Part shown: positions 45,701 through 64,000 of the stretch, one piece after another
Layout of the letters: each line of letters opens with the position of its first letter
Position numbering within the stretch: position 1 is the first letter of the stretch
Assembly (NCBI GenBank): GCA_963666975.2
Contig: CAXVYR010000003.1
Coordinates: forward strand, 704,001-768,000
Origin: Terriglobia bacterium
Lineage (GTDB): Bacteria > Acidobacteriota > Terriglobia > 2-12-FULL-54-10
Direction of reading: 5' to 3'
Length of the DNA stretch: 64,000 bases
Translations under genes and position numbers: made by a program
Notes under the pieces: generated by a model
What the model saw: the letters and a program-made list of their open reading frames with translations, nothing else
The model's database searches: none
What the model was told of the DNA's origin: nothing

Positions 45701-45979
45701 GCGGCGAAGTGGGTTTGGATTGAGGTTGGGAAGGAGCATTGAGCGAGCTCATCTAGCTTCCTTTCCGCCACAAAATCTTAACAGCTCTCCCACCAACCAC
45801 TTGGCCTTGCCGACAAGGAGTACACGCTTTACTGGCCGTTCCCGAATAGCCATGGAATTTTCCACCAACCTCAGAGCACAAAGCAAAAGGTATCTTTAGT
45901 AAGACTGCTCCGCGACAGCGCAACCGCTTGCAAAGGCACCGTTTCAACTCTATAATTAGGACCGTTTCCGGCCACGCCA

Positions 45980-47908
45980 ATGAAGGAATTCGGCTCCAAC
46001 CTAAAACGGCGCATTTGGCAGCCTTTTCTTTTCATCATCTTGGCAGCCTTGGCTGCCGCTGTATTCTTCACTATTTTCCCCAGACCAAGCCCTGTTGTTT
46101 TGTGGTCGCATACCGCGCTACTCATCCTGCTAGTACTCACCGTGGGATGGCGGTTGGTACGGCGCATTGTCAAAGCGGGACAGGAACTGGCCAAAGCGGC
46201 CGAGCAGCTATCCCCGGGCACCTTAGATAAGGCCTCCGAACAATCGGGTGAGATCACGGCCTTGGTTCACACCGTGAATACGATGGCCAGCCAACTGCGG
46301 CAAAAGGAACAAACCTGGATCGGGGACTTGGAACAGCGCACTCAGGCCGTACAGGAGATGTCAAAAACCCTGCAGGAGCAGGCCACCAGTTTCGAGACCG
46401 CTCTCAACTCGGTGGATTTAGCGGTCTGCCTGTTTGATTCCAACGGCAATATCTTGCAGGTGAACCAACGATTCTGCGGTTTTTTGGGAACAGAACAGGC
46501 AAAGCTGAAATCCATGGACTTGTTACAAGTCGCCTCGGAATTGCAGAACTTTGTCTCCGCTCCCGACGAGCTGGCGGAGGTTGCCGAGGCAATCTTCCGG
46601 GAGCCTTCGGCCCCCCGTGACACGAATGTTGCCATGAAGGACCGCTCCGGAAACCTCCGAATTTACTGTGTGCCGATCTTTGGGGAGATGAGCAGCCTCG
46701 TGGGCATCGTGATTTCTCCCGGAGAGGGCGCAGACTCCTCCGCTATGGACCGCTTGAAGACCGAATTCATCTCCACCGTCTCTCACGAATTGCGGACGCC
46801 GCTGACGGCTATCAAGGGCGCTCTGGGGCTGGTGCTGGGAGGGGCAGGAGGCCCGGTATCGGCGCGGATTCGGGAATTGCTGGAGATTGCCAGCAACAAT
46901 ACCGACCGGCTGATCCGGCTGGTAAATGACATTTTGGAAGTTTTCCGCATGGAAACCGGCAAGCTGAAATTGCGGCCGGAAATTGTCGACGTTTCCGAGA
47001 TGGTCAGCCAAGCTTGCGGAAAGGTCAAACAGGAAGCCGCGGCGGCAGGGATTCTTTTGGAAGTTCATGTCGCACCGGACATGATGCCGGCCCTGGTGGA
47101 TGCGGAACAGGTGCAAATGGTCCTGGAGAACCTGCTTTCCAACGCCATCAAGTTTTCCAGCCGGGGAGGTGTCGTGCGGATTGCGGCCGAGCCGATGCAG
47201 GCAAATCCCAAATTTATGACTCTTTCCGTGCAGGATTTCGGGGCAGGAATCCCCATGGAAGCCCAGCGGCGGATATTTAAAAAGTTTGAACAGGCCGAAA
47301 GCGTAATGACGCGGCAGCATCAGGGCCCGGGGCTGGGGCTGGCCATTTGCCGGGGAATCGTGGAAGGACACGGCGGGCGCATTTGGGTAAATAGCGAACC
47401 CGGCAAAGGGAGCACCTTTTTCATCACCCTGCCGCTGGCCCAATCACAGACCATGCGCAAACCCGCCCCCGCCGCAGCACCTGCCTCCCCGCCTCAGCCG
47501 GGGGTGCACCACTTGGTTATGGTTGTCGATGATGACACCGACACCCGCAATGTTATTTCCCGGATGTTGCAATCGCAGGGACATTTCGTGCTGGAGGTGG
47601 GCAACGGCTTGGAGGCGGCCGATTTGGCGGCCCGCCACCGCCCGGAAGTCATCACCCTGGACCTTATTATGCCGGAGATTGATGGGTTGGAGGTTTTGCG
47701 GACACTCAAAGCAAACTCGCAGACGCGTCAAATTCCGGTCATCTGTGTCTCGATTTCCGATGAACTTTCTGCCCAGGCGCTCCAAACGGGGGCGGTCCAG
47801 TTCATTCGGAAACCACTGGAACCCGCTACGCTTTTGAGCGCTATCAACGCAGTCTGTAGCACCGGTTCCGGCTCAACCGGGTCAGGCTCACCAGCCGCTG
47901 CAGGATAA
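45980..47908 (+). CDS. Hybrid sensor histidine kinase (2TM-HAMP-PAS-HisKA-HATPase-REC)
   Basis: VSHELRTPLT, NLLSNAIKF, GLGLAIC; REC domain VVDDD...LDLIMP...KP. Confidence 0.95.
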   Translation: MKEFGSNLKRRIWQPFLFIILAALAAAVFFTIFPRPSPVVLWSHTALLILLVLTVGWRLVRRIVKAGQELAKAAEQLSPGTLDKASEQSGEITALVHTVNTMASQLRQKEQTWIGDLEQRTQAVQEMSKTLQEQATSFETALNSVDLAVCLFDSNGNILQVNQRFCGFLGTEQAKLKSMDLLQVASELQNFVSAPDELAEVAEAIFREPSAPRDTNVAMKDRSGNLRIYCVPIFGEMSSLVGIVISPGEGADSSAMDRLKTEFISTVSHELRTPLTAIKGALGLVLGGAGGPVSARIRELLEIASNNTDRLIRLVNDILEVFRMETGKLKLRPEIVDVSEMVSQACGKVKQEAAAAGILLEVHVAPDMMPALVDAEQVQMVLENLLSNAIKFSSRGGVVRIAAEPMQANPKFMTLSVQDFGAGIPMEAQRRIFKKFEQAESVMTRQHQGPGLGLAICRGIVEGHGGRIWVNSEPGKGSTFFITLPLAQSQTMRKPAPAAAPASPPQPGVHHLVMVVDDDTDTRNVISRMLQSQGHFVLEVGNGLEAADLAARHRPEVITLDLIMPEIDGLEVLRTLKANSQTRQIPVICVSISDELSAQALQTGAVQFIRKPLEPATLLSAINAVCSTGSGSTGSGSPAAAG

Positions 47909-47913
47909 AATTT

Positions 47914-48306
47914 ATGGTAATTCGCAAAGTTTTGCTGGCCGAAGATGATGAGGACATTCAAAAGGTAGCTCAGATCAGCCTCCAGTTTCGGGGAGGCTGG
48001 GAAGTGGAGCTGGCTACGAACGGCGAGGAGTGTATAGCCAAGGCACTCCAGAATCGTCCCGATCTGATCCTGCTCGACTGTATGATGCCCCAAATGGACG
48101 GTTATGAGGCTTGCCGCAGGCTCAAGCAAGACCCCTCGCTGAGGGATATCCCGGTGATCTTTCTGACGGCCAAGTCGCAGGAACGAGAAGTCAAAAAAGG
48201 CCTTTCGCTGGGCGCGATCGGCTACCTGATCAAACCCTTCAACCCCATGACCCTGGCCGAAGAAATCCGGCAGATTCTCGGAGTGGAAGAAGAGACCTCT
48301 TCATGA
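47914..48306 (+). CDS. Single-domain response regulator
   Basis: LAEDD, LLDCMMPQMDG, LTA and KPF motifs. Confidence 0.95.
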   Translation: MVIRKVLLAEDDEDIQKVAQISLQFRGGWEVELATNGEECIAKALQNRPDLILLDCMMPQMDGYEACRRLKQDPSLRDIPVIFLTAKSQEREVKKGLSLGAIGYLIKPFNPMTLAEEIRQILGVEEETSS

Positions 48307-49430
48307 AGAAACCACCCCAAAAAAAACCGCCCCGGAAGATGCCCTCGCGACGCGCCCCGGCCACGGCGCCAAAACTTCCCGTGGACCCGGCCAGCATTCT
48401 CGAAGGTTTGCCGGATGGCGTTCTGGTGACCGACAGCGACTGGCAGATTTGCTATGCGAATCGGGCTTTGCTGCACGCCGTGAAATGTTCTGAAAAGGAC
48501 CTATTAGGGACACCCCTCCGCCTGCTTCCAGGCAAAACCGGCCTTGGAGATTCTTCGAGCGACCTGTTCCACTATCTAGCCCATTTGACGTCCTCCCCTC
48601 CGGAGCAAACGGAAGTAAAGACGGTCAGCGTACAAACACCCGCGCGGAAATATTTCCGCATCACCACCCAACCCTACCGCCCAACGCATTCCAAAACGGA
48701 CGGCTATATCCTCACGTTTGCCGACGCCACCCGCGAAGGAGAGATCGATGAGATGAAGAGCGAATTCATCGCCGTGGCCTCTCACGAACTGCGCACCCCC
48801 ATGACCTCCATCAAGGGTTCCCTGGAGCTTCTGCTGGGAGGGTACGCGGGCGCGATGCCTGAGGATGCGAACGAATTACTGGGGATATCCCTCACAGCCG
48901 TGGACCGGCTGATCCGGCTGGTCAACGATATGCTGGACATCGCCAAGATTGAATCCGGAAAGATGGAATTTCACCTGGCGCATCTGAATGTGACCGAGTG
49001 CATAGAGAAGTCCATGCGCAGCATCCGCTCTCTGGCAGAAGCGCACCATGTCTCCTTTCAGATTGAGCAGCCGGAGAATATCCCGGCCGTGTTTGCCGAC
49101 CGCGACCGTCTGGAGCAGATCATCACGAATCTGCTTTCCAACGCTCTAAAGTATTCCCCCGCCAACAGCGTCGTACACATTCGCACTAGCAGCCGGAATG
49201 ACACCGTCCGTGTTTCTGTAACTGACCAAGGTCCCGGAGTTCCCCCCAGCAAAATTCACAAGGTGTTTGACCGGTTTCAACAGTTGGAGGGAGCCAAAAA
49301 AGGCACCGGCCTGGGGCTCGCCATCTGCCGGGCACTCGTGGAACAGCAGCGAGGCAAGATCTGGGTGGAAAGCGTACCCGGCCAAGGAGCTGAATTCCAC
49401 TTTGAACTCCCCGCCGCTCCGGCTGACTAG
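48303..49430 (+). CDS. Soluble PAS histidine kinase
   Basis: PAS-like LPDGVLVTD...YAN; SHELRTPMT, NLLSNALKY and GTGLGLAIC. Confidence 0.94.
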   Translation: MKKPPQKKPPRKMPSRRAPATAPKLPVDPASILEGLPDGVLVTDSDWQICYANRALLHAVKCSEKDLLGTPLRLLPGKTGLGDSSSDLFHYLAHLTSSPPEQTEVKTVSVQTPARKYFRITTQPYRPTHSKTDGYILTFADATREGEIDEMKSEFIAVASHELRTPMTSIKGSLELLLGGYAGAMPEDANELLGISLTAVDRLIRLVNDMLDIAKIESGKMEFHLAHLNVTECIEKSMRSIRSLAEAHHVSFQIEQPENIPAVFADRDRLEQIITNLLSNALKYSPANSVVHIRTSSRNDTVRVSVTDQGPGVPPSKIHKVFDRFQQLEGAKKGTGLGLAICRALVEQQRGKIWVESVPGQGAEFHFELPAAPAD

Positions 49431-50494: not shown

Positions 50495-52940
50495 AGGTGC
50501 GGCGCAACAACCGTGTTAACCGAGCGTTGAGTTCGGCGACGTTGAAGGGTTTGGAGACGTAATCATCCGTTCCCACCATGTAGCCCCGGATTCTCCCCTC
50601 TTCACTTGGGCTGGCCGTCAGCATCATGATGGGAATAAACGCCGTCGCTACCTGAGACCGCAGCTTCTCGCAGACTTCAAATCCATCCATCCCGGGCATC
50701 ATGATGTCCAGAATAATCAAGTCGGGTTGCATCGTCCCGGCCCGTTCCACGCCTTCGGCTCCATTGGCGGCAAGCTCTGTTTCAATTGCAAAAGGTAATT
50801 GTTCGAGGGATTTTTCCAGGATGGTCCGAATGGACGGGTCGTCGTCGACGATCAGAATTTTGGGCTTCTTCGAGGGGGCCTCTTCCTCGCCTGATTTGCC
50901 CGCTGCAGCCTGGCCAGCCCCACCCGGGACCGATGCCCTGCGGTCGGGAGTTTTTCTCGGCGCCGCCCGCCGGTCGAGGGTATTCCGCTGATTGGGGAGA
51001 GAGGTGACGCCCACTTCCTTTGCGGCTGTCTCAGCCTGCTCGGGCAGCATCCGCATGGGTTCTACCGTTTCCTCCGTGACCGGAGACTTGCAATAAGGAC
51101 AAACCTTCCAGCCTCTCTTCAATTGCTGGTTGCAGGTCTGACACAGCAGCTTCAAAGAAGTCAGGCAATTGGGACAAATAGCAAATTCCGCCTCAATAAA
51201 CGCTTTACAACTGGGACAACGGTTGCGGAAACTCGCCTCCTCTTCCTCAAACTGCAACACACGGAACAATTCGCTGAGAGCGGTCTTCCCGTTCCGGATA
51301 TTTTCCAGGCCTCGGTCCAGAAGGAACCGCATCCCTTGCTGGCGCATCGCCGCTTCGATCTCGAAATCGGAAGCTTTGCGGATAACCATCTCGCGGAGCA
51401 CGTTCGTCATCGGCAGCATCTCGTAAATTGCCCAGCGGCCGGTGAACCCGGTGCCCGAGCACTTAGAACACCCTACCGCTTTGTAGTAAGTCCCCTCGGA
51501 TCGGTCCGCGCCCAGCTTTTTGAGCAATCCCTCCGGAGGATCATAAGCCTCTTTGCAATCGTCGCAGAGTTTTCGGAGCAGACGCTGGGCGATGATCAGC
51601 GAGATTGAGGAAGTCAGCAGAATAGGGTCCACGCCCAGGTCCATCAACCGGCTCAAGGTGGCGGTGGCGCTGTTGGTATGCAGGGTGGAGAGGACCAAGT
51701 GGCCCGTCATGGCGGCATGGAAGCCAATATCGGTCGTCTCCGCATCGCGCATCTCGCCGACCAGAATCACATCCGGGTCCTGGCGGAGGATCGAGCGCAG
51801 TGAGTGAGCAAACGTCAGCCCCGCCTTCAGGTTCACCTGGACTTGGTTGATGCCGGCCATTTGATATTCAATCGGATCCTCTACGGTCACGATGTTCAGG
51901 TCTGGGCTCTTCCGCATGGCCAGGCAGGCATAGAGGGTAGTGCTCTTCCCGCTTCCGGTCGGTCCGGTAACGAGGATCAATCCCTGAGGTTGCATTACGG
52001 AGCGCATCAGAATATGCAGATCGTCATCTTCTAATCCCAATTGCTCCACCGTCGGCAGGTCAGTGCCCGAGGAAAGGACCCTCATAACCACTTTTTCCCC
52101 GAAGTGCGTGGGCAGGGTCGAGACACGAAGGTCGTAGGATTTGCCGACCCGCTGCACCTTCAGGCGCCCGTCCTGCGGCATGCGTCGCTCGCTGATATCC
52201 AGCCGGGCCAGAATTTTCACCCGCGAGCAGATGGGGTTCGCCAGCCATTTCGGCAACTGCATCAACGGCCGCAACACGCCGTCAATGCGAAGGCGCACCT
52301 GCACGTCATTCAACGTCGGCTCGATGTGGATATCGGTGCCGCGCTGCGCGATCCCGTCCTGGATAATCAGATTGACCACCTTGATCACAGGCGCCATCTC
52401 AGCTTGGCTGCGGCTGTCGGAGAGGTCCACATCGGCATCGTCGCCCTCGCCGCCGGTGACGATTTGAAACTCTTTGGCGTCTTCCAGGTTATCCGTGAAG
52501 GCCCGCAAAGCGTCGTCGGGTTCGTAGTATTTCTCGATGGCGTCCAGAACCTCTGTCTTCGTGCACACCACCACCTTCAGCGGTTTGCCGACGCTGAATT
52601 CGATATCCTGCATGGCGCGGTAATCGGTGGGGTTCGCCATCGCCAGCAGCAGGTGGCGGCCTTCCTGGCGGATGGGGATGCAGATGTATTTCCGGGCCGT
52701 CTCTTGCGGGAGCATTTTCACCGCTTCGGGATCGACGTTGGCCGTCGCCAGGTTGACGCGGGGGAAGCGCGCATAGGCAGCCAGAGAATCGGCCAGCCCC
52801 TCTTCGCTGACCCGCTCATCGGCCAGAATGGACTCGATCAGGGATTTATTCTCCGTCGAGCATTTGACAATGGCATTCTTGAGTTCCTCGTGTGTTACCC
52901 CTCCCGCTTGAACCAAGTGCTGCTTCGTCTTTTCGGCCAT
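50481..52940 (-). CDS. PilB/GspE-family ATPase fused to a double zinc ribbon and a C-terminal receiver domain
   Basis: TDIHIEP, PQDGR, GPTGSGKST, VEDPIE, LRQDPDVILVGEMRD; CPSC/CPNC/CQTC/CPYC; VDDD...LDIMMPGMDG...KPF. Confidence 0.94.
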   Translation of the reverse strand: MAEKTKQHLVQAGGVTHEELKNAIVKCSTENKSLIESILADERVSEEGLADSLAAYARFPRVNLATANVDPEAVKMLPQETARKYICIPIRQEGRHLLLAMANPTDYRAMQDIEFSVGKPLKVVVCTKTEVLDAIEKYYEPDDALRAFTDNLEDAKEFQIVTGGEGDDADVDLSDSRSQAEMAPVIKVVNLIIQDGIAQRGTDIHIEPTLNDVQVRLRIDGVLRPLMQLPKWLANPICSRVKILARLDISERRMPQDGRLKVQRVGKSYDLRVSTLPTHFGEKVVMRVLSSGTDLPTVEQLGLEDDDLHILMRSVMQPQGLILVTGPTGSGKSTTLYACLAMRKSPDLNIVTVEDPIEYQMAGINQVQVNLKAGLTFAHSLRSILRQDPDVILVGEMRDAETTDIGFHAAMTGHLVLSTLHTNSATATLSRLMDLGVDPILLTSSISLIIAQRLLRKLCDDCKEAYDPPEGLLKKLGADRSEGTYYKAVGCSKCSGTGFTGRWAIYEMLPMTNVLREMVIRKASDFEIEAAMRQQGMRFLLDRGLENIRNGKTALSELFRVLQFEEEEASFRNRCPSCKAFIEAEFAICPNCLTSLKLLCQTCNQQLKRGWKVCPYCKSPVTEETVEPMRMLPEQAETAAKEVGVTSLPNQRNTLDRRAAPRKTPDRRASVPGGAGQAAAGKSGEEEAPSKKPKILIVDDDPSIRTILEKSLEQLPFAIETELAANGAEGVERAGTMQPDLIILDIMMPGMDGFEVCEKLRSQVATAFIPIMMLTASPSEEGRIRGYMVGTDDYVSKPFNVAELNARLTRLLRRTYGVS

Positions 52941-53137
52941 AAAATATGCGCCCTCAGAGTTCTACAGACATCCCTTCTTGGGCCACGAAGCAGGAGTACG
53001 GATAATTCCGCTCCGCAATGGTCTTCTGGCAAAATTCCAGGATATGGTCCATGAATGCGTCGTCATGGGATGGGTCATGGTGGAAGATGGCCATGCGGCC
53101 GACCTCGGCCTGTGCGGCCCGCTCCAAAGCATCTAAA

Positions 53138-54604
53138 CCCGCATTTCCAGTTTGAAACTGTAGAAGCAACCTTCGACTAGCCTCCAACATCAATATTGAT
53201 GCTGGTTTCAGCATCAACATTGGCGTGCGGAGGTATACACCGAATGGGTGAGAGACAAAATCAGCCATTTCAACTCACTTTTAATGCCTCGTTGAAGGTC
53301 GCTTTCCACGGATCGAGGGTCACCTCCAACGGAGGGTTGATTCTGGTACGGGAGTTGGACGAACGATTGGGATTCGGTGAACTCATCAAGCAGCACCTAG
53401 CCGATCCTCGGGGGAAGAACACACGGTTGCCCCTCGCGGACCTGCTACGGCAGTCGGTGTACAGTCGCTTGGCTGGATACGAGGATGTGAACGATGCCGA
53501 GCAACTCTCACGAGATCCGACCTTCCGGCTGATCGGTTCCGAGAAGAATTGGGATCGAGGGGCAGCACTGCCATCCCGGTTGCAAACCTTCGAGACGGAG
53601 GTGCTGGCTGAGGAGGAGAACTTCGCAGGGCTGGCACGGCTGAACCGGGAACTGATCGGCAGGGCAGAAGCAATCGATTCGCCGTACCGGGTAGTGCTCG
53701 ACATGGACTCGACTGAGATCCCGGTCTACGGGGAGCAGGAGCAAAGCGCCTACAACGGGCACTTCGAGTCCACCTGTTATCATCCGGTGCTTCTGTTCAA
53801 TGGAGGCGGCGATTGTCTAGCGGCCAAGCTCCGTGCCGGCAACGTCCATAGTGCCGAAGGCTGGGAAGAACTTCTGTTGCCGGAGATCGAACGCCAGCAG
53901 TTGATGGGGAAAGAAGTCGTGTTTCGGGCTGACGCGGCCTTTGCCAAGCCGGAGGTTTACGAAGCGTTGGAGGAGCGGGGTGTGAAGTATGCCATCCGCA
54001 TCCCTTCCAACGAGAACCTCCAGCGGGACATCGAGGAGTTGCTGAAACGTCCGGTAGGAAGGCCGGGCCAGAAGCCGTTGGTGGAGTACAAGGGGTTTCT
54101 GTACCAAGCCGAGAGTTGGAAGACGGCCCGACGGGTGGTAGCCAAGGTAGAACATCATCCGGGGGAGTTGTTCCCGCGAGTGGGGTTCATTGTGACGAAT
54201 CTGACGCTTCCGAGTCGGGCGGTGGTGCGTTTCTATAATAAGCGAGGGACAGCAGAGCAGTGGATTAAGGAAGGCAAGCAGGCGGTGAAGATGACGCGGC
54301 TCAGTTGCCATCGGTCCGCTCCAAAGGTACGGCTGTGGCTGACCATCATTGCCTATAATCTGGGAAATCTTTGGCGGCGGCTGGTGCTGCCACAGAGAAT
54401 CGGGAACTGGTCCCTGACGAGCTTGCAGCAGCGGTTGGTGAAAACCGGAGGACGCCTGATTAAGCATGCCCGCTACTATTGGCTATTGCTGGCAGAGAGC
54501 CATCTGACGAGACGTTTATTTGCTAGCATGCTGGGGCGAATAGATGGGCTGTCGCTTCCGTCGGGATAGCCTAGCCTGCGGCGCACCCAAGAAAATGATT
54601 CCGA
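53138..54604 (+). mobile_element. IS1380-family insertion sequence
   Basis: Transposase ORF flanked by CTAAA direct repeats (53133-53137 and 54605-54609); removing the element restores the host reading frame at the junction. Confidence 0.88.
53244..54569 (+). CDS. IS1380-family transposase
   Basis: TSNGGL, GYEDVND, LDMDST, YHP, RADAAF and YNKRGTAEQWIKEGK motifs. Confidence 0.95.
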   Translation: MGERQNQPFQLTFNASLKVAFHGSRVTSNGGLILVRELDERLGFGELIKQHLADPRGKNTRLPLADLLRQSVYSRLAGYEDVNDAEQLSRDPTFRLIGSEKNWDRGAALPSRLQTFETEVLAEEENFAGLARLNRELIGRAEAIDSPYRVVLDMDSTEIPVYGEQEQSAYNGHFESTCYHPVLLFNGGGDCLAAKLRAGNVHSAEGWEELLLPEIERQQLMGKEVVFRADAAFAKPEVYEALEERGVKYAIRIPSNENLQRDIEELLKRPVGRPGQKPLVEYKGFLYQAESWKTARRVVAKVEHHPGELFPRVGFIVTNLTLPSRAVVRFYNKRGTAEQWIKEGKQAVKMTRLSCHRSAPKVRLWLTIIAYNLGNLWRRLVLPQRIGNWSLTSLQQRLVKTGGRLIKHARYYWLLLAESHLTRRLFASMLGRIDGLSLPSG

Positions 54605-55752
54605 CTAAAAACGTGCTATGCCCCCATCCCTTTTTTTGTATATTCCTCTTCCGTATATTGCGCTTCGCAGATCAACAGATCTGCTTTTTCAGCAAAACGC
54701 GCAATGGCTAAATCCATCTCATTGGGGCTATCTCCATCAGGCGATAGCTTGCCGTAGGGCTCGTGGTCGCTGAGATACACAAGTGATCGTCCATTGGAGC
54801 AGATGCGGAACCCTATTGCAAGACCTGGGTGGTTCAGGAAAGTGTACGAAACCACCGTGTCTCCAAGCTGCACATCCGACTCCAGCTCGTAAAATTGCAG
54901 TTTGGCCTTCATATCGCCCAAATGGACTGGAAAGTAATCGCTGTCCATCTGTCCCCGGAAGACCTTTTCCAGCGGCTTCCCTGCCCCGTGCAAGCTATAG
55001 ACGGTAAATTCGTTGCCTGACATGAACGCCGGCGCAAAGAAAGGGAACCCCTGGATGTGGTCCCAATGCGTGTGCCCTACAAAAATGTGTCCTTTGATGG
55101 GCTTACTCTGGAACTCTTTGAGCAAGGAGAGTCCGAACGGGCGAATGCCGGTCCCGGCATCTAAAATCAGCAATTGATCTCCACAGCGCACCTCGGTGCA
55201 GGAAGTATTGCCGCCATATTTTACCGTAGCAGACCCTGGAGTCGCGATCGAACCCCGCGTACCCCAGAAACGAACCGTAAACCGCGACTGCTTTTGTTCC
55301 GTCAGATCTTTGATAGTCTGCCAGAATTCGTCCAGGCTGTAGGGCTTGCTTAAAAAACGGTCTGCCCCCAACCGCATGGCTGTTTCCACATCCGAGGAAT
55401 AGGTTTTAGCCGAACTGACTATGACCTTGACATGGTTCAGGCTGGGATCCTTACGAATTTCCTGTATTACCGTGTAGCCATGCATCTTCGGCATCATCAC
55501 GTCCAAAACCACCAGGGTCGGGACGGGATTCGCGGATAACGAGCCGGAGCGCTTCGACCTCCATCGCTGCGCTGGTCAAGATTTGAACAGCCTCGACCTC
55601 GAGAGCCCGTTTGACGGCTATCGCCAGAATAGAAGGGTCATCGTTTCTACTAGAAGCACTTTTGTCATAAGAACTAGAAGAACGTTGCGCTATGGCAGGA
55701 ACGTGAACATAGAATGATCGAGAAGAAATCCTTAAAGCAAGTCATGGGTTGA

Positions 55753-55917
55753 ACACATTTGTTGAATAAGCTGGATGCCGGGGATTCGTTCGTGCGGAGC
55801 GTCCAGCGAAAGGTTTTTCACACACAGAACGTCGTTATCGAAATGTCGGCCGAAGTCCGGAAAAAGACTGGCAATGTTTGCCGCTGGCGCGACGGCGAGA
55901 TGAAATTTCCTGTGTAG
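55753..55917 (+). pseudogene. Possible IS256-family transposase C-terminal remnant
   Basis: Manual translation TQNVVIEMSAEVRKKTGNVCRWRDGEMK resembles the IS256 pattern TN.IE....VR..T.NV.RWRDG.M. Confidence 0.4.
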
Positions 55918-56094
55918 GAATGGCACCGGAAACAACCCCAAACATACTGGGATGGCCTCTAAATTACTTGGCTTGTTGAACGCAGGGTAAGTTGGCAGAC
56001 TGGAGTGAGCTTGTCTGCAAGCAATGAATTTGGGGACAGGCAGAAAACTTTATCACCACAAATGAGGTTTTTGAGCAACAGGAGGAGTTGAACA

Positions 56095-58005
56095 ATGGGG
56101 AAATGGAAAATGTCCCACCGCATAGCTACTGTGGGCTGTAGCGTATTCTTGCTGGCGGTCGCCACGGCGGGTGCTCAGACGGTTACGGTGCCCGCAACAC
56201 TGGTGGGATACCCCGATCTGATTGTTCATAACGCAAAGATTGCCACGATGGATGATGCTTCCCTCAATCCCACGATGGGCCGCACGTCCGAGGCCATGGC
56301 GGTCCGGGATAAGAAGGTTTTGGCTCTGGGGAACAACGCGGAGATGCTGGCGCTGGCCGGCCCGCAAACCAGGAAGATCGACCTCCGGGGCCGGACCGTC
56401 GTTCCAGGCATTATTAACACCCACTCCCACATGCATGACCACTCGATTCAACGATGGGTTCAGGCCAACGAGGACAAGATTGAAACCGTGGTACGGCGGT
56501 TTTCCGTGACCGGACAAACCTATGAAGAGTTGGCGCAAGGTATTGAGCTGGTCCTCAAGGAGCAGATGGCGCATGCCGAGCCGGACCAGTGGGCCATCAT
56601 TTCACTCCCCCGCGGGGGCAGCTCGGGAACCGGGATTGGCGTCCAGTACCTGAATGACCCCGGGAGCGGGGCGAACCGGGAAGAGCTGGATAAGCTGTCT
56701 CCCAATTCGCCTGTCATGCTGAACGCGCACCCCAACTGGATGCTGAACAAGAATGCCGAGGACTCGATTTTAGACCTGTATGGCCTGGAGAACACCCCAG
56801 AGAACCGCGAGGTCTTCGTTCCGGTCTTCAACACCACCATTAACCGCTCCTTGGTGGTAGATCGCTACTTCGCCAGCCGGATTCCGGAACTGGCCGCTAT
56901 CATCCAGGACGGCTTGGAACATCAAGCCGCCGTGGGATTCACCACCTTCAGCTCGCACATTGTAGGACTCCGGAATTTTGATGCCTACCGAATGCTGGAA
57001 CGGGAGGGCCGTTTGCCCATCCGGTTCGCATTTGCGCACCGCTACGGCCAACAGGTGGAACCCGATCCTGCCGGATTTTTCATGCGCCTGGGCGACTTGG
57101 CGGGCATGGGCACCGATTATTTCTGGAATGTGGGACCCACGATGGGCGGTCTCGATTCCGGTCCGCCCAGCATCTGCACCACGATGGAAGCTCCTGAAAA
57201 GTTCAAGTCGAAGGAAAAGTGCGTGCTGGAGCCGGGCAGCAACACGGAGAAAGCGATCATCTCAGCGCTGAACTCTTATCAACGCTATGTGGTGAACCAC
57301 GTCTATGGGGACAAGGCCTTTGGTAATTTCATGAACGTTGTGGAGCGGGTCATTGAATCCAACCCCGGCATCACGCTGGAGTATATCCGGTCCCGCAGGC
57401 TGACGGCGGATCACTGCGGTTTTTATCCCAATCCAGAGCAGTTGCCGCGGATCAAAAAGCTGGGGATTGTCCTCAGTTGCGATCCTAATTTCATGAACCG
57501 CAGCTATCCCTGGCTTAGCGTGTACGGGATGGATAAGGCGAACCGCATTGGCCCGATCAAGAGCATACTGAATGCAGGGATCATGCCCACCGCCGAAGCG
57601 GAAATGTCTGTCGAGAGCGGGACCGGCCCCACCTACTTCACCGTTCAAAGCAAATTCCTCACACGGAAAAACAGCAGAGGCGACTTGGTGGCCCCGGAAG
57701 AGGCGATAGACCGTATCACCTTGATGAAAATGATGACGACATGGGCTTCCCACTACGTAATACGGGAGGACGCCATCGGGTCCCTCGAGCCGGGCAAGCT
57801 GGCCGATTTTGTGGTCCTGAACAAAGACTACTTCACGATCTCGGAGGCTGATATCCCGACCGTCTTCCCGCTGATGGTGGTGCTGGGAGGCAAGACCACT
57901 ATTTTGCGCAAGGAACTGGCCGACGAGTGGAACGCCCAGCCGATCGGCCCCCAAATGAATTGGGAATTCAGCATGCCGTGGAGAGAGCAAGAAGTCATCA
58001 TGTAA
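56095..58005 (+). CDS. Exported amidohydrolase_3 (YtcJ-like) protein
   Basis: Sec signal peptide, DLRGRTVVPGIINTHSH, HVYGD, DHC and GSLEPGKLADFVVL. Confidence 0.9.
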   Translation: MGKWKMSHRIATVGCSVFLLAVATAGAQTVTVPATLVGYPDLIVHNAKIATMDDASLNPTMGRTSEAMAVRDKKVLALGNNAEMLALAGPQTRKIDLRGRTVVPGIINTHSHMHDHSIQRWVQANEDKIETVVRRFSVTGQTYEELAQGIELVLKEQMAHAEPDQWAIISLPRGGSSGTGIGVQYLNDPGSGANREELDKLSPNSPVMLNAHPNWMLNKNAEDSILDLYGLENTPENREVFVPVFNTTINRSLVVDRYFASRIPELAAIIQDGLEHQAAVGFTTFSSHIVGLRNFDAYRMLEREGRLPIRFAFAHRYGQQVEPDPAGFFMRLGDLAGMGTDYFWNVGPTMGGLDSGPPSICTTMEAPEKFKSKEKCVLEPGSNTEKAIISALNSYQRYVVNHVYGDKAFGNFMNVVERVIESNPGITLEYIRSRRLTADHCGFYPNPEQLPRIKKLGIVLSCDPNFMNRSYPWLSVYGMDKANRIGPIKSILNAGIMPTAEAEMSVESGTGPTYFTVQSKFLTRKNSRGDLVAPEEAIDRITLMKMMTTWASHYVIREDAIGSLEPGKLADFVVLNKDYFTISEADIPTVFPLMVVLGGKTTILRKELADEWNAQPIGPQMNWEFSMPWREQEVIM

Positions 58006-58174
58006 TCCACCGTTCTCTTCTTTCTCGCAACCATTGCCGGAATTTTGGGGCAGTTCCAGGGGCCTGTAACACGACACCCTGGGGTTGTCCCGCATTGGTT
58101 TCCGGCAATCATTTCTCTAGCATGATTTCCAGCATGGTTACGGCGAGCATTTGAAAACTCAAAGGAATGGCAAC

Positions 58175-58977
58175 ATGAATTCGCACGGAAAATCCTGGAC
58201 GGCACTGCTGCTTCCGGCAATGTTTCTAGGGATGGCGATTCCGTCCGCGGCACAGTCCCAGTTTCCCGATGGGAAGGGGAAAGAGATTGTCGAGATGGTG
58301 TGCAGTCAGTGTCACGGCCTGAATCACGTCTCGGACTCAAGGCGAACCCAGGAAGAATGGGAAAGCGTGGTCAGCGACATGGTTGCACGCGGAGCGCCCT
58401 TGCTGGTCGATGAAATCGATACCGTGTCGGAATATCTGGTCAAGAATTTCGGTCCGCAGAGCCCCCCAGAGCTGCTTCCCAGAAAGCTGCTAGTGCAAGC
58501 GCGGCAACCACGCTGTCGGAAAGCCAGGGAAAAGAGATTGTCGAGACGGTATGCACGCAGTGCCACGGTCTGAATACCATTTCCAGTGCCGGGTACCGTT
58601 CCAAGGAAGAATGGGAAGGTGTGATCAGCGACATGATCTCCAGGGGCGCGCCCTTGCTGGACGATGAAATGGACACTGTAGCCGAATATCTGACCGCAAA
58701 TTTTTCCCCGAAGGCATCCTCCGGCAGTTCCGCGAGCGCTTCCGGCCAAGGTGCGGCCAATACAAACTCGGCAGCCACATTGCCCGAGGGCAAGGGGAAA
58801 GAGATCGTCGAGATGGTCTGCAGCCAGTGCCACGGCCTAAATAACGTGGCCGGTTCGCGACGAACCAAGGAAGAATGGGAAAGCGTAGTCAGTGACATGG
58901 TCGCCAGAGGCGCTCCCTTGCTCATCGATGAAATTGACCTTGTCACGGAATATCTGGCCGAGCATTGGGGGCCTTAA
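58175..58977 (+). CDS. Exported cytochrome c with three tandem mono-heme domains; frameshift at the C6 run 58462-58467
   Basis: Signal peptide; three repeats of G.EIVE.VC.QCHGL...EEWE.V.SDM..RGAPL (CSQCH, CTQCH, CSQCH). Confidence 0.88.
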
Positions 58978-59093
58978 GCAGCAAGCCCCAGCCGCTCTGC
59001 TCAGATTGCCATAGCGGCTCGAGCGAGGATATTCAGAAAATATCTTCTGGGAATCATGGTTCATTCGGTGGATTTGCTTTAAGGAGAGTGCGT

Positions 59094-60989
59094 ATGAGAA
59101 AACTCGTCCAGGACCTTGTAACTTCCAAGCTTTCCCGGCGCGGCTTCCTCGCCAGCATGGTGGCGGCTGGTTACACCCTTTCTGCTGCCCAATCGGCCCT
59201 GCAATCGGTCTCGCCGTTTGTTCCCGGGGCCCACGGAGCCGAGACCGCTGAGTCCTTCACCCGCTCTGTGACCGGCACAGGAGGCGACCTGATGGTCGAG
59301 CAGATCATTGAGGCGGGCGCCCGCTACCTGTTTGTCACCAACGGCTCCGGCCTCGGCCCGCTGTGCGACGCCCTGGTCACACGTCCCCAGATTCAGCTGA
59401 TCCAGGCCGTCCACGAAGGCCAGGCCGTGGCGATGGCTGACGGTTACGCCAAAGCCTCCGGCAAGATCGGCTTTGGGATGTACAGCCGCGTCGGGCTGCC
59501 CAACTCCTCCTCCAACATGTACAACGCCATGAAGGACCGCACCCCGCTGGTGCTGCTCAGCGATCACGCCGATTCGACCAGCGAAGGGACTGACAGTCAC
59601 GAGGACCTTTACGATTTCCTGGAACCGGTGAAGCAATTCACCAAGTGGCGTTGGGTGACACACGAGGCAAGCCGGATCCCGGAATGGATACGCAAAGCTT
59701 GCAAGGTATCCACGGTCCTGCCCGGAGGCCCCACCTATGTTCGTTTTCCGCGCAACCTGCTGTACCGGGAAAACGTAACGGCGCCGGTCTTTGCGGGCGA
59801 AGCTTTCCACATCCCAATGGATCTTCGGCCGGACAAAAAGCAGGTAGAGCGCGCCGCGAAAATGCTTCTGGAAGCCTCTTCGCCGCTCTTCTATGTCGGG
59901 CGGGAGGTTACACAGACCCATGCCCGCGCATCACTGGTGGAGCTGGCCGAGCTGCTGGCCATCCCGGTGGTCCAAGGCAGAAGTTACTGCGCGGATTTTC
60001 CAAACTTCCATCCGCTCCACGTCGGTGAACTGCGCACGACGCGGATTCCCAAGCAGGCCGATTGCCTCGTCAATTTCGGCGCCCGTTTCCGCCCGCGGGA
60101 AAGAAGATTCCTCAATCGGATTCCCACTGTGATCCACGCCACCGTGGAGCCAGAGGTGCTGGGCCGCAACACCGCGCTGCAGGCGGGGTTGGTCGGCAAT
60201 ATCGACATGGTGGCGCGCGACCTGATAGACGCCGTAAAAAGCATGGCAACGCCACAAAAACTGAAGGAACGTACGGCGGAGCGCCGGGCGGAGATCTCTT
60301 CCTACACAAAACGCCTGCGGGAGGCGCGCATTTCCTTGGCGCGCCGCAGCACGGGCAAGCAGATCCCCTGGCAGCGTCTCATGGTCGAACTGAACGATTT
60401 ACTCGACCCCGACGCCGTGATTATTCCCGAAATCGGCTCCGACGAAAAGTTTCTCAATTTTTTCACCTTCGCCGACGATGCGAAATTAAAGGTCGGCCGC
60501 ACCGAGGGAATGGCGCTCGGATGGGGCATGGGAGCTTCGGTGGGCGTCAAGCTCGCGCTTCCCAACCGGCAGGTCGTCACCATCCAGGGAGACGGCGGTT
60601 TCCTGTTCGGGCAGACCGATGCCTTGTGGACGATGTCCCGCTACGACGTGCCGGTGCTGACGGTCATCGCGAACAACCAATGCTACGAGGCTACGCGCCA
60701 CCGGATCATGGGCCGCGGAGGAGCCGCGGGGAAAGCTCAACGTGACTATATCTCCTACCTGGGCGACCCGGAAGTCGACTTCACCCAACTGGCGGCAGCC
60801 TACAAAATCGGCGGCGAGATCGTGCACAACACCGACCAGTTGCGCCCGGCCATCCAGCGGGGCATCCGCGCACTCCGCGACGGACGCCCCTATTTGCTGG
60901 ATGTCCGCGTTCAGACCATAGGAGTCGGCGCCGAGCTTTCCTGGTATCCCGATTTCTCGCTGGCAGAAACCCGGGAACAGAAGGTATAA
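59094..60989 (+). CDS. ThDP-dependent enzyme (decarboxylase superfamily) with twin-arginine leader, paralog 1
   Basis: SRRGFL plus hydrophobic helix; HEGQAVAMADGYA; GDG-X26-NN. Confidence 0.92.
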   Translation: MRKLVQDLVTSKLSRRGFLASMVAAGYTLSAAQSALQSVSPFVPGAHGAETAESFTRSVTGTGGDLMVEQIIEAGARYLFVTNGSGLGPLCDALVTRPQIQLIQAVHEGQAVAMADGYAKASGKIGFGMYSRVGLPNSSSNMYNAMKDRTPLVLLSDHADSTSEGTDSHEDLYDFLEPVKQFTKWRWVTHEASRIPEWIRKACKVSTVLPGGPTYVRFPRNLLYRENVTAPVFAGEAFHIPMDLRPDKKQVERAAKMLLEASSPLFYVGREVTQTHARASLVELAELLAIPVVQGRSYCADFPNFHPLHVGELRTTRIPKQADCLVNFGARFRPRERRFLNRIPTVIHATVEPEVLGRNTALQAGLVGNIDMVARDLIDAVKSMATPQKLKERTAERRAEISSYTKRLREARISLARRSTGKQIPWQRLMVELNDLLDPDAVIIPEIGSDEKFLNFFTFADDAKLKVGRTEGMALGWGMGASVGVKLALPNRQVVTIQGDGGFLFGQTDALWTMSRYDVPVLTVIANNQCYEATRHRIMGRGGAAGKAQRDYISYLGDPEVDFTQLAAAYKIGGEIVHNTDQLRPAIQRGIRALRDGRPYLLDVRVQTIGVGAELSWYPDFSLAETREQKV

Positions 60990-61063
60990 CCGGAACAAAT
61001 TGAATTCGGACCTGTTCGGGCGCGTTGTCAGCAGGTTCACCCCATGCGGCAAGGAGCATCTTT

Positions 61064-62947
61064 ATGAGAAAACTCGTCCAGGACCTTGTAAATTCCAAGC
61101 TTTCCCGGCGTGGCTTCCTCGCCAGCATGGTGGCGGCTGGTTACACCCTTTCCGCAGCCCAATCGGCCCTGCAATCGGTCTCACCGTTCCTTCCCGGAGC
61201 CGAAGCCGCTGAGTCCTTCACCCGCTCTGTGACCGGCACAGGAGGCGACCTGATGGCCGAGCAGATCATTGAGGCGGGCGCCCGCTACCTGTTTGCCACC
61301 AACGGCTCCGGCCTCGGCCCGCTGTGCGACGCACTGGTCACACGTCCCCAGATTCAGCTGATCCAGGCCATCCACGAAGGCCAAGCGGTCTCGATGGCCG
61401 ACGGTTACGCCAAAGCCACCGGCAAGATCGGCTTTGGGATGTACAGCCGCGTCGGGCTGCCCAACTCCTCCGCCAACATGTACAACGCCATGAAGGACCG
61501 CACCCCGCTGGTGCTGCTCAGCGATCACGCCGATTCGAGTAGCGAGGGAACCGACAGCCATGAGGACCTTTACGATTTCCTGGAACCGGTGAAGCAATAC
61601 ACCAAGTGGCGCTGGGTGGCACACGAGTCGAGCCGGATACCGGAATGGATACGCAAGGCCTGCAAGGTCTCCACGGTCCTGCCCGGAGGCCCCACCTATA
61701 TTCGCATTCCGCGCAACCTGCTGTATAAACCAAACGTAACAGCATCGGTCTTTGCGGGCGAAGCTTTTCATATCCCGATGGAGCTGCGGCCGGACAAGAA
61801 ACAGGTGGAGCGCGCCGCGAAACTGCTTCTGGAAGCCTCTTCCCCGCTCCTCTACCTCGGACCGGAGGTGAGCCAGACCAACGCCCGCGCGTCGCTGGTG
61901 GAGCTGGCTGAGTTGCTGGCCATCCCGGCGACGCAAGCGCGGAGCTTTTACGCGGATTTTCCGAACTTCCATCCGCTCCAAGTCGGGGAATACGGCCGCA
62001 CGATGCGGTATCCCAAAAATGTTGATTGCTTTGTCAATTTCGGGGCACGCTTCGGGGGCCGGAGCAGGCTTCCCGAGGGGATCTCCATCATACATGCCAG
62101 CGTGGAGCCGGAGGCGCTAGGACGCAACACCCCGGTGCAGGTGGCGCTGGTGGGCCATCTCGACCATGTGGCGCGCGACCTCGTCGAGGCTGTAAAGAGC
62201 ATGGCGTCGCCGCAGAAACTGAAGGAACGCACGGCTGAGCGCCGGGCGGAGTGCGCCTCCTACACGAAGCGCATGCGGGAGTCGCGCGTCACCCTGGCCC
62301 GCCGGGCCAGCGGCGACCCGGTGCCCTGGCAGCGGCTCATGGTCGAGTTAAACGACCAGCTCGACTCCAACGCCGTCATCGTCGAGGAGTTGGGAACGGA
62401 GGGCAAAGTCCTGAACTTTTTCTCGTTTGCCGATGATGCCAAGTTAAAGATCGGACGCACCGAGGGACGGTCTCTCGGCTGGGGCGTGGGAGCTTCGGCC
62501 GGGGTCAAGCTCGGCCTTCCCAATCGCCAGGTCGTCTCCTTGCAGGGAGACGGCGGTTTCCTGTTCGGCCAGACCGATTCCCTGTGGACCATGTCCCGCT
62601 ACGACATTCCGGTGCTGACCGTCATCACAAACAACCAGGGCTACGAGGAGCCTCGCTGGAACATGATGAACCCGCGACGACGCGCAGGAAAAGCCGGACG
62701 CGACTATATCGGCTACCTGGGAAATCCGGATATCGATTTCACGAAGCTGGCGGCGGCATACAACATCGGCGGCGAAGTCGTGCAAAACACCGATCAGTTG
62801 CGCCCGGCCATCCAGAAAGCCCTCCGCGCGCTCCGCGACGGACGACCCTACTTGCTGGATGTGCGCATCTTGAGGACCGGCACCGGCGCTGAGGTTTCTT
62901 GGTATCCCAAATTTTCGCTGGCCGAGCACCGGGAGCGAAACGTATAG
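61064..62947 (+). CDS. ThDP-dependent enzyme with twin-arginine leader, paralog 2
   Basis: Same motifs; 5' nucleotide sequence nearly identical to paralog 1. Confidence 0.92.
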   Translation: MRKLVQDLVNSKLSRRGFLASMVAAGYTLSAAQSALQSVSPFLPGAEAAESFTRSVTGTGGDLMAEQIIEAGARYLFATNGSGLGPLCDALVTRPQIQLIQAIHEGQAVSMADGYAKATGKIGFGMYSRVGLPNSSANMYNAMKDRTPLVLLSDHADSSSEGTDSHEDLYDFLEPVKQYTKWRWVAHESSRIPEWIRKACKVSTVLPGGPTYIRIPRNLLYKPNVTASVFAGEAFHIPMELRPDKKQVERAAKLLLEASSPLLYLGPEVSQTNARASLVELAELLAIPATQARSFYADFPNFHPLQVGEYGRTMRYPKNVDCFVNFGARFGGRSRLPEGISIIHASVEPEALGRNTPVQVALVGHLDHVARDLVEAVKSMASPQKLKERTAERRAECASYTKRMRESRVTLARRASGDPVPWQRLMVELNDQLDSNAVIVEELGTEGKVLNFFSFADDAKLKIGRTEGRSLGWGVGASAGVKLGLPNRQVVSLQGDGGFLFGQTDSLWTMSRYDIPVLTVITNNQGYEEPRWNMMNPRRRAGKAGRDYIGYLGNPDIDFTKLAAAYNIGGEVVQNTDQLRPAIQKALRALRDGRPYLLDVRILRTGTGAEVSWYPKFSLAEHRERNV

Positions 62948-63102
62948 ATTTGATTTTTCAGCAGGAAGAAAATAGCATGGTATTCTGACTGGCTTTGCTG
63001 TTCATCGCGTCTTGAGAGATGAACGCAAGGTGCCAGCAAACTGCAATCCTGAAACTTTGTCAGGCTCAAACGCAGAAAACGGCTGGGAGGTGCTGCCACA
63101 CG

Positions 63103-63789
63103 ATGAGAATTGACCCGCCCGGGAGTCTGAACAATCCACGAACTTTATTTGCCGGGAGCCTGGGAGCGCTCTGTCTTTTAGCCGCCGCCCTGGCGATAAC
63201 CGCCCCTCTGCTTTCCGAACTGCTGCAGGAGGCAAACGCCAAAAGCGCGCTGCAAACCCCGGCAGAGGAAACCCAAGATTCCTCACAAGCTGTGCCGCGC
63301 GTTTCCGTTGGGGAAATTACCGGAACACCGGGCGCCAGTTTGATGCTGCCTCTTTATTACACAGCGGACCCCAACGTCCCCTTGCGCTCTCTTACCGTCG
63401 AAATCGACTACGTCAGCAATAATTTGAAATTCAACAAAGCGTCCCGTGGCGTCGTGACCGAAAAGGCAGGCGCCGACGTGGCTGCGACCTTGACCGATGG
63501 AACCCCGAATGAAAACGGGCTCACGCGCTCCAAGCTGCAGATTGCCACTTCCTTGACTGAACAGAACCCGCAAGAAGGAATCCCATCCGGGTTGCTGGCT
63601 TTCCTCCTGTTTCGCATCAATCCGAAAGCGAAGCCTTTTGCAATTCGCCTGAACACCAGGGTCGTCTCGGCTGAAGACCTCCAATCTCCGCCACAAAAGG
63701 TGACTCAAGTCGCAGCCACGCCCGGATTAGTGGTGGTGGAGCTTGCCGATGTGCTGCCCGAAGCGACCTGCTTCTTCTTTACCCATTAA
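63103..63789 (+). CDS. Exported or membrane-anchored cohesin-like (Ig/beta-sandwich) protein ending in CFFFTH
   Basis: N-terminal hydrophobic helix; VSVGEITGTPGASLMLPL, IPSGLLAFLLFRI pattern; C-terminal ATCFFFTH. Confidence 0.7.
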   Translation: MRIDPPGSLNNPRTLFAGSLGALCLLAAALAITAPLLSELLQEANAKSALQTPAEETQDSSQAVPRVSVGEITGTPGASLMLPLYYTADPNVPLRSLTVEIDYVSNNLKFNKASRGVVTEKAGADVAATLTDGTPNENGLTRSKLQIATSLTEQNPQEGIPSGLLAFLLFRINPKAKPFAIRLNTRVVSAEDLQSPPQKVTQVAATPGLVVVELADVLPEATCFFFTH

Positions 63790-63841
63790 CGGCGATCGCG
63801 CCGGGGGCGGGCACGCAAGGAAAGCCTGCGGAGGAGGAACC

Positions 63842-63949
63842 GGCGGATTGCTAACGCGCGCGGCTCGGTCAGTGCAGCCCAATCAGCACGCCGATTCTGA
63901 GCCGCGACCGTGAGGGAGCGGGTAAATAGTGTTTTTCAACAACCTGCTA
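63842..63949. repeat. Second copy of the element at 1867-2004, with the right terminal repeat only
   Basis: TTGCTAACGCGCGCGGCTCGG..AGTGCAGCC..AATCAGCACGCC...GAGCCGCGACCGTGAGGGAGCGG...GTTTTTCAACAACCTGCTA. Confidence 0.8.
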
Positions 63950-64000
63950 AGAGAATACCTTCGGCATTCGTGTGTAGTCAGAGCCGCGCGCCTGTCCCGC

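Follow-up and report, generated by a model that had tools for sequence, protein, structure and literature searches.

The conserved core of a five-gene block in a Terriglobia bacterium of the phylum Acidobacteriota is, as judged from sequence comparison, an enzyme dependent on thiamin diphosphate (ThDP) with a leader of the twin-arginine translocation (Tat) type, paired with a c-type cytochrome predicted to be exported by the general secretory (Sec) pathway. The block lies in a stretch of 64,000 nucleotides (NCBI GenBank assembly GCA_963666975.2, contig CAXVYR010000003.1, positions 704,001 to 768,000 of the forward strand), which is referred to here as the window. With a probability of roughly 55%, this core constitutes a two-component periplasmic oxidoreductase, in which a ThDP-dependent dehydrogenase would reduce a cytochrome c of its own, a reading that builds on the domain content of the proteins, the conservation of the leader, the pairing of the genes and the type of the cytochrome. 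To our knowledge, every member of this ThDP superfamily that has been characterised works in the cytoplasm, and we know of no oxidative members that use anything other than flavin or iron-sulfur clusters. Full-text searches of the literature outside subscription journals found no description of an exported ThDP enzyme or of a ThDP-cytochrome pairing, and the main text of a 2026 review of the Tat pathway (PMC13673990) mentions neither thiamin nor TPP nor ThDP. The occurrence of the pairing across several phyla points to an undescribed kind of oxidising enzyme outside the cytoplasm. If this is true, ThDP would join the short list of cofactors that are exported by the Tat pathway, bacteria that abound in soil, sediment and the sea would have a new entry point for electrons into their respiratory chains, and enzymology and biocatalysis would gain a new ThDP redox chemistry.

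The list of open reading frames (ORFs) agrees with the sequence-only reading of this DNA that five co-oriented genes span positions 56095 to 63789. All lie on the plus strand with gaps of 75–170 bases between them, and the block ends at 63789, the next genes downstream being on the minus strand. Its features are as follows:

56095–58005, plus strand: amidohydrolase ORF of 636 amino acids, with a leader of the Sec type, an Amidohydro_3 domain and, around residue 100, the metal motif HSH
58175–58573, plus strand: cytochrome c, piece 1, whose Sec-type leader and haem domain 1 (CXXCH) are followed by about 35 residues out of frame before a stop
58151, plus strand: alternative TTG start of cytochrome piece 1 (ORF 58151–58573)
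58462–58467, plus strand: run of six C, the frameshift site, with one base fewer than intact alleles
58468–58977, plus strand (ORF 58621–58977): cytochrome c, piece 2, in the shifted frame, with a linker, haem domain 2, a Ser/Ala-rich linker and haem domain 3
59094–60989, plus strand (ORF 58965–60989, likely start ATG 59094): ThDP enzyme 1 (ThDP1), 631 amino acids
61064–62947, plus strand (ORF 61025–62947, likely start ATG 61064): ThDP enzyme 2 (ThDP2), 627 amino acids
63103–63789, plus strand (ORF 63019–63789, likely start ATG 63103): cohesin-fold protein, 228 amino acids

Both ThDP proteins carry the three TPP_enzyme domains of Pfam; the bit scores are 81.8 for TPP_enzyme_N (cut-off 26.8), 66.5 for TPP_enzyme_M (cut-off 30.4) and 86.8 for TPP_enzyme_C (cut-off 21.9). 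ThDP1 contains the catalytic Glu108 and the GDG...NN motif for ThDP/Mg, and E108, D500-G501 and N527-N528 are invariant in 26 aligned sequences of 36–100% identity, so that domains, catalytic glutamate and cofactor motif place the enzymes in the pyruvate oxidase/decarboxylase superfamily. ThDP2 is a tandem paralogue, 80% identical to ThDP1 and with the same leader, and two further genomes of this genus (G001 and G002) have the duplication as well. Each ThDP ATG is preceded by an AAGGAG ribosome-binding site. None of the curated NCBIfam cut-offs is reached by the ThDP enzymes, the best model being PRK08327 (NF006203) with 244 bits against 456. The models for benzoylformate decarboxylase (BFDC; NF005485, 185.1 bits for ThDP1 and 184.6 for ThDP2 against 493), acetolactate synthase (TIGR00118, 202.9 against 538), sulfoacetaldehyde acetyltransferase (TIGR03457, 163 against 676) and glyoxylate carboligase (NF008431, 139 against 791) all fall short as well.

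Among solved proteins, a profile of the family matches BFDC best (E 6e-68), followed by BbmA (6e-64) and acetohydroxyacid synthase (AHAS; 2e-58), while a Foldseek search with an AlphaFold2 (AF2) model of ThDP1 (predicted local distance difference test, pLDDT, 83.6) ends in a near tie of BbmA/HKA synthase, BFDC, glyoxylate carboligase, benzaldehyde lyase and AHAS, at about 21% identity each. BFDC (MdlC; PDB 1bfd, 2v3w) has the same three-domain fold as ThDP1 and ThDP2, with template modelling (TM) scores of about 0.82–0.87 when normalised to target length, and an alignment to 2v3w shows its Ser26 and Glu47 to be retained in the ThDP enzymes. Behind the first strand of the central domain lies a loop that reads GPEV in the ThDP family and GPDV in BFDC, compared with GGG in plant AHAS. 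By contrast, the identity to BFDC is only about 21–22%, and the two histidines His70 and His281, which we take to be catalytic residues of BFDC, are not matched, His70 being replaced by Tyr/Phe130 and His281 falling into a variable stretch near residues 335–336. BFDC also lacks the Tat-type leader of 45–60 residues and the cytochrome c neighbour of the ThDP family. No invariant cysteine for an iron-sulfur cluster is present in the 26 aligned ThDP sequences. The enzymes would thus form a distinct, probably flavin-free clade. The genome of the window (G000) encodes a third ThDP paralogue with a Tat leader (contig C4:824721–826634; locus L024:9016–10938), which is 39% identical and lies beside genes for a 2-oxoacid:ferredoxin oxidoreductase; its homologue in genome G009 does adjoin a two-haem cytochrome (L017).

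An export signal had been assigned to each of the five proteins from the window alone, and a simple scan for Kyte–Doolittle (KD) hydrophobicity and small residues finds an export-type N-terminal leader on every one of them. The amidohydrolase leader has three positive charges in its n-region, an h-region KD of 2.29 and an AGA/Q site, and that of the cytochrome an h-region KD of 2.32 and an SAA/Q site. After SRRGFL (residues 14–19 of ThDP1), the leaders of ThDP1 and ThDP2 run on for about 29 residues that bear no charge; their h-region is weaker (KD 1.56), and small residues offer candidate cleavage sites. The twin-arginine motif [ST]RRxF[LIV] is found at residues 14–19 in 117 of 120 ThDP homologues, the other three having mis-called starts that are extended or truncated, and in 67 of the 68 loci with a complete N-terminus. 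A search of 1.84 billion representative sequences with the leader only gave 44 matches at E ≤ 0.001, nearly all of them starting at query residue 1; since these are mostly short N-terminal fragments, they are a poor gauge of family size. With TatC encoded in the genome, the motif, the mildly hydrophobic uncharged stretch and the translocation machinery of a Tat substrate are all present, and we infer that ThDP1 and ThDP2 are exported by Tat. In the cohesin-like protein, the N-terminal hydrophobic segment (KD 2.57) could serve as a signal peptide or as an anchor; signal peptides of the ordinary kind are seen on the homologues of this protein.

A ThDP homologue at E ≤ 1e-50 was found in 12 of the 61 related genomes searched. 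The pairing with a cytochrome was counted in 69 loci from species-representative genomes, and wider neighbour counts cover 74 loci. A same-strand cytochrome of this type stands beside the ThDP gene in 54/69 loci, mostly less than 350 bp away and either upstream or downstream of it, and the paired loci come from Acidobacteriota, Gammaproteobacteria/Woeseiaceae, Rhodospirillaceae, Binatia, Deltaproteobacteria and Verrucomicrobiia. The pairing is also kept in relatives of the window's genome, including paralogues of only 40–46% identity. The cytochrome is missing in 15 of the 69 loci, ten of which are cut by a contig end beside the gene. These counts, together with the conservation of the leader (117/120 and 67/68), support the proposal drawn from the window that an exported ThDP enzyme works with a dedicated c-type cytochrome. 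As c-type cytochromes mature outside the cytoplasm, the partner enzyme is expected there too. Conservation across phyla extends to this pair, whereas the amidohydrolase and the cohesin-like gene are rarely kept beside it.

The wider surroundings of the ThDP gene are more variable. An outer-membrane barrel of the TonB-dependent type occurs nearby in 19/74 loci, propellers of the NHL/SGL type and any gene of the amidohydrolase superfamily in 13/74 each, an NMT1-like binding protein and a metallo-beta-lactamase fold in 9/74 each, and a cohesin-like protein in 6/74. Nearby outer-membrane barrels, binding proteins and hydrolases fit the extracytoplasmic breakdown of an imported compound. An apparent cytochrome-ThDP fusion of 853 amino acids (L066:7332–9893) was rejected as an artefact, a comparison with L067 revealing a frameshift at the C-terminus of the cytochrome.

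The partner cytochrome has weak cytochrome c matches in Pfam on both of its pieces. In a profile of the haem domain built from 39 domains (A4), the two cysteines and the histidine of the haem motif, a tryptophan and a methionine are invariant, and among PDB entries this profile comes closest to quinohaemoprotein amine dehydrogenase, in its haem domains (E 1.4e-11), and to the SorB protein of sulfite:cytochrome c oxidoreductase (E 7e-7). The domains thus seem to resemble the cytochromes that accept electrons in periplasmic dehydrogenases. Of the two Sor proteins, SorA is exported by Tat and SorB by Sec. Like SorAB (PDB 2blf) and quinohaemoprotein amine dehydrogenase (PDB 1jju), the system described here, which is known from its genes, would combine a cofactor-bearing periplasmic catalytic subunit with a small His/Met cytochrome c of its own. 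It differs in that the cofactor would be ThDP instead of molybdopterin or quinone, and in that three haem domains stand in tandem. With the NCBIfam SorB model (NF052246), whose cut-off is 93 bits, the scores are 31.3 and 36.8. Within a genome, haem domains 1 and 3 (58253–58460 and 58768–58974; L013:8320–9123) are 81%/89% alike, compared with 77%/81% between genomes, which suggests concerted evolution or gene conversion inside the cytochrome gene. A respiratory sink is available, as the genome encodes two COX1 genes (haem-copper oxidases) and three cytochrome c assembly genes. In some loci of the Bryobacteraceae type the partner cytochrome carries a C-terminal helix-hairpin-helix (HHH_3; L070:9932–10432, L020:10912–11466).

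According to the proposed mechanism, ThDP1 and ThDP2 would fold and take up ThDP/Mg in the cytoplasm, before the Tat pathway exports them by means of the conserved SRRGFL leader. In the periplasm they would attack a carbonyl substrate, such as a 2-oxoacid, an aldehyde or an alpha-dicarbonyl, and the resulting ThDP-bound carbanion/enamine would lose two electrons, one at a time, to the neighbouring cytochrome c, a Sec-exported protein with His/Met-ligated haem that has three haem domains in the intact allele. The cytochrome would hand the electrons to the respiratory chain and the acyl-ThDP would be released as an acid, with no flavin expected in the enzymes. One-electron oxidation of a ThDP intermediate is feasible in pyruvate:ferredoxin oxidoreductase (PFOR). 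The chemistry would indeed resemble that of pyruvate oxidase/PoxB and PFOR, in that a ThDP-bound enamine is converted to acyl-ThDP and the electrons leave the enzyme. Those enzymes rely on FAD or iron-sulfur clusters and are located in the cytoplasm or on the inner side of the membrane, whereas the ThDP family bears no sign of either, is predicted to be periplasmic and would have haem c as its acceptor. A complex prediction with ThDP1 residues 45–631, haem domain 3 and haem gave an ipSAE of 0.02 in both runs, against a mark of 0.32, for a single ThDP chain of an enzyme type that acts as a dimer, which lends the complex no support but does not speak against it either. A broader claim, for which we would give somewhat less than even odds, is that a flavin-free, Tat-exported ThDP enzyme passing electrons straight to its own cytochrome c represents a class of respiratory dehydrogenases that would be new (periplasmic ThDP-dependent carbonyl:cytochrome c oxidoreductases) in at least four phyla, which in this bacterial family would also be fed by exported amidohydrolases with a new family of partners, the cohesin-fold proteins ending in CFFF[TS]H.

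Several observations weigh against such an oxidoreductase. We know of no precedent for direct transfer from ThDP to haem c, the solved proteins nearest to the enzymes catalyse no oxidation, being decarboxylases, lyases and ligases, no cytochrome stands in five loci whose flanks are complete (L031, L047, L094, L096 and L097), and the third Tat-ThDP paralogue of the genome (L024) has no cytochrome neighbour. Furthermore, the cytochrome gene is frameshifted in this assembly, and a variant contig of the same genome (C1) retains nothing of the amidohydrolase, the cytochrome and ThDP1, and of ThDP2 it lacks the first 170 residues. The sequence of the leader is unusually conserved, its n-region included, and the same twin-arginine leader is found on a 35% identical relative (L023:8903–10951) with no cytochrome nearby, so that the leader could have a role other than export. 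This relative adjoins genes for a family III CoA-transferase and a carboxyltransferase, which calls for caution in reading the leader as an export signal. Exported ThDP enzymes of a non-oxidative kind (decarboxylase, lyase or carboligase), next to a cytochrome that serves another enzyme or is a co-regulated general carrier, would agree with the non-redox chemistry of the closest solved relatives (BFDC, BbmA/HKA synthase, benzaldehyde lyase and glyoxylate carboligase), the absence of any sign of a flavin site and the full-flank loci that lack a cytochrome. Such an arrangement is nevertheless unlikely, since the cytochrome is the sole neighbour that is kept across phyla (54/69 loci, the barrel and the propellers following with 19/74 and 13/74), no second dehydrogenase recurs near the ThDP gene, and the cytochrome domain is of the kind that is built into dehydrogenases. 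It is improbable that the ThDP enzyme is a flavoprotein like pyruvate oxidase/PoxB, with electrons passing from ThDP through FAD to the cytochrome: the central TPP_enzyme_M domain is present, and the flavin-binding AHAS, glyoxylate carboligase and cyclohexanedione hydrolase are also strong fold and profile matches, but two indirect pointers argue the other way: the best profile match is the flavin-free BFDC, and the GPEV loop appears closer to the GPDV of BFDC than to the GGG of AHAS. Hardly credible is a cytoplasmic location, in which the twin-arginine segment would be no export signal and the adjacency of the cytochrome would have no functional meaning. Signal peptides do not usually keep the sequence of their n- and h-regions across phyla as this leader does, AF2 models it as helices (pLDDT of about 77–83), and the relative beside the CoA-transferase has the same leader; yet the motif and where it stands, the positive charge of the n-region, the 29 or so uncharged residues and the sites with small residues all fit a Tat signal, and a pairing with a necessarily periplasmic protein in 54/69 loci would be left unexplained.

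The sequence-only reading had joined all five genes into one periplasmic pathway, in which amide hydrolysis would be followed by ThDP-dependent oxidation and reduction of the cytochrome, possibly assembled on the cohesin-fold protein. The block is syntenic in G001 and partly in G002, with differing flanks, the window amidohydrolase has its reciprocal best match beside a cytochrome-ThDP pair in another genus (g8), and a distance of no more than 10 kb separates cohesin-like from Tat-ThDP genes in G000, G001, G002, G003, G009, G012 and G013. Against such a pathway, which is quite unlikely as a whole, stand the rarity of the window-type amidohydrolase (4/69) and the cohesin-like gene (2/69) beside the ThDP gene, the many amidohydrolase paralogues in the genome, the lack of a dockerin in the genome, and the restriction of the multi-copy cohesin-like family to one bacterial family, compared with a ThDP-cytochrome pair that spans phyla. 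In G001 and G012, moreover, the cohesin-like gene is followed by a gene for an NMT1-like binding protein, so that it may head another unit.

The role of the amidohydrolase as the upstream step is weakly supported. Its protein scores 115.6 bits with Amidohydro_3 in Pfam, above the gathering cut-off of 29.7, and the HSH corresponds to the HxH metal motif of these metallohydrolases; no NCBIfam equivalog is matched. The 4.2-Mb genome holds 130 Amidohydro_3 matches in Pfam and 86 long tblastn alignments with a median of 31% identity to the window enzyme. With about 86–100 paralogues, adjacency in this genome is close to chance, the probability of finding an amidohydrolase beside any 5-kb block being about 0.26 by a rough estimate from gene density. 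On the other hand, the enzymes of the window and of g8 are reciprocal best matches at 49% and 47.6% identity, compared with 45.5% for the best paralogue within the genome, and unrelated amidohydrolases recur near the ThDP-cytochrome pair in four phyla. The amidohydrolase thus appears to be an accessory, lineage-specific partner outside the conserved core, which may supply the substrate of the ThDP enzymes in this lineage. Many Amidohydro_3 genes of the genome, which encode about 620–680 amino acids, stand in tandem arrays (e.g. C3:10552–18144, C2:306722–320742 and C4:2240571–2249539); G001 has 91 Amidohydro_3 matches, and G003, G009 and G012 have 24–40.

The label cohesin-like proved apt for the fold of the protein at 63103–63789, which has no Pfam match and belongs to no NCBIfam family. 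It consists of the N-terminal hydrophobic segment, a low-complexity linker, a beta-sandwich at residues 62–215 and a C-terminal CFFFTH. A cohesin fold is confirmed at the level of the predicted structure by an AF2 model with a mean pLDDT of 83.8, for which the best PDB matches in Foldseek are type I cohesins (E 6.7e-9, probability 1.00, TM 0.74–0.79 normalised to target length), and a precomputed Pfam Cohesin match exists for 9 of 116 homologues. The beta-sandwich is that of cellulosomal type I cohesins (PDB 4ums, 5nrk and 1aoh), at 13–19% identity. In contrast to these, the protein has a single domain and is not a scaffoldin, it comes from an Acidobacteriota genome without a dockerin, its neighbours are amidohydrolases, and it ends in an invariant motif, C[FS]FF[TSNM]H, which is found in 116/116 homologues. 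This C-terminus may act as a signal for sorting, anchoring or binding. A blue-copper site, considered for the C-X4-H pattern of this tail, was rejected, as there is no second conserved His/Met ligand and the invariant cysteine and histidine occur only in the tail.

The proposal that the module is organised on this beta-sandwich protein is not supported. No Dockerin_1 match was found in the genome, which is 98.9% complete, and no dockerin domain on the four neighbouring proteins. The family occurs in 13/13 genomes of the window's bacterial family and in 0/47 of other families of the class, with 1–10 copies per genome. There are six distinct copies in G000, the others besides the window protein being at C3:59822–60427, C3:409079–409756, C3:686687–687346, C4:1689683–1690294 and C4:2142157–2142828. 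Among the matches listed, the copies within 3 kb of an Amidohydro_3 gene number 2/6 in G000, 5/9 in G001, 2/4 in G003, 2/6 in G009 and 7/10 in G012, amounting by hand count to 18/35 in these five genomes, which are kin and not independent, compared with roughly 4 expected from gene density. About 10/53 copies lie within 10 kb of a Tat-ThDP gene, and G005 has a close cohesin-fold homologue with no ThDP match at E ≤ 1e-50. The cohesin-fold protein therefore tracks the amidohydrolases, and it would go with the exported amidohydrolases of the genome, not with the ThDP-cytochrome unit.

The cytochrome had been described as a protein with three haem repeats. The three CXXCH repeats are all present, but they do not form a single open frame. 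Relative to the intact gene of the sister genome G001, which encodes 267 amino acids, the alignment places the absence of one base in the C-run at 58462–58467, whereby the first ORF loses its frame and stops at 58573, while another frame holds repeats 2 and 3. In public contigs on 58200–58800, with a depth of only 3–7 and library types that are not on record, runs X4 and X6 from one study, from which the window's DNA may stem, agree with the window at this position, and runs X7 and X9 from two other studies have an extra C behind 58461, which restores the frame. The difference may be a real one between strains or a homopolymer error. The cytochrome gene is clearly functional in the lineage, and, given the frameshift in the assembly, this strain may have an impaired ThDP-cytochrome system. 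Read in the zero frame, the site at 58462–58468 is C CCC CCA, which has the X XXY YYZ shape of a -1 slippery heptamer, and a -1 slip there would yield exactly the intact frame, an agreement that may mean nothing.

Contig C1 (8.7 kb; 8699 bases) joins positions 45881–48597 of the window, an insertion sequence and positions 61577–64000 of the window. As a whole it is a mosaic, in which two insertion sequences, both multi-copy, are combined with two segments of the window. It has the look of a variant within the population that has exchanged about 13 kb, with most of the gene block, for an insertion sequence, and together with the frameshift in the cytochrome gene it suggests that the block is unstable in this population. 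A search of 52000–64000 against Rfam, including the TPP riboswitch, gave no match at E ≤ 1. Scans of 55400–64000 found three promoter-like sites compared with 2.7 expected, which is about chance, and 15 terminator-like sites compared with 9.0 expected (standard deviation 3.0), which is near chance; none of these sites lies clearly between the block genes. Upstream of the block, an insertion sequence occupies 53196–54569. Its DDE_Tnp_1_4 transposase gene (53196–54569, plus strand) is flanked by minus-strand ORFs at 54616–55512, which matches response-regulator and metallo-beta-lactamase-fold domains, and at 52954–53268, and these two ORFs look like the halves of a single gene broken by the insertion.

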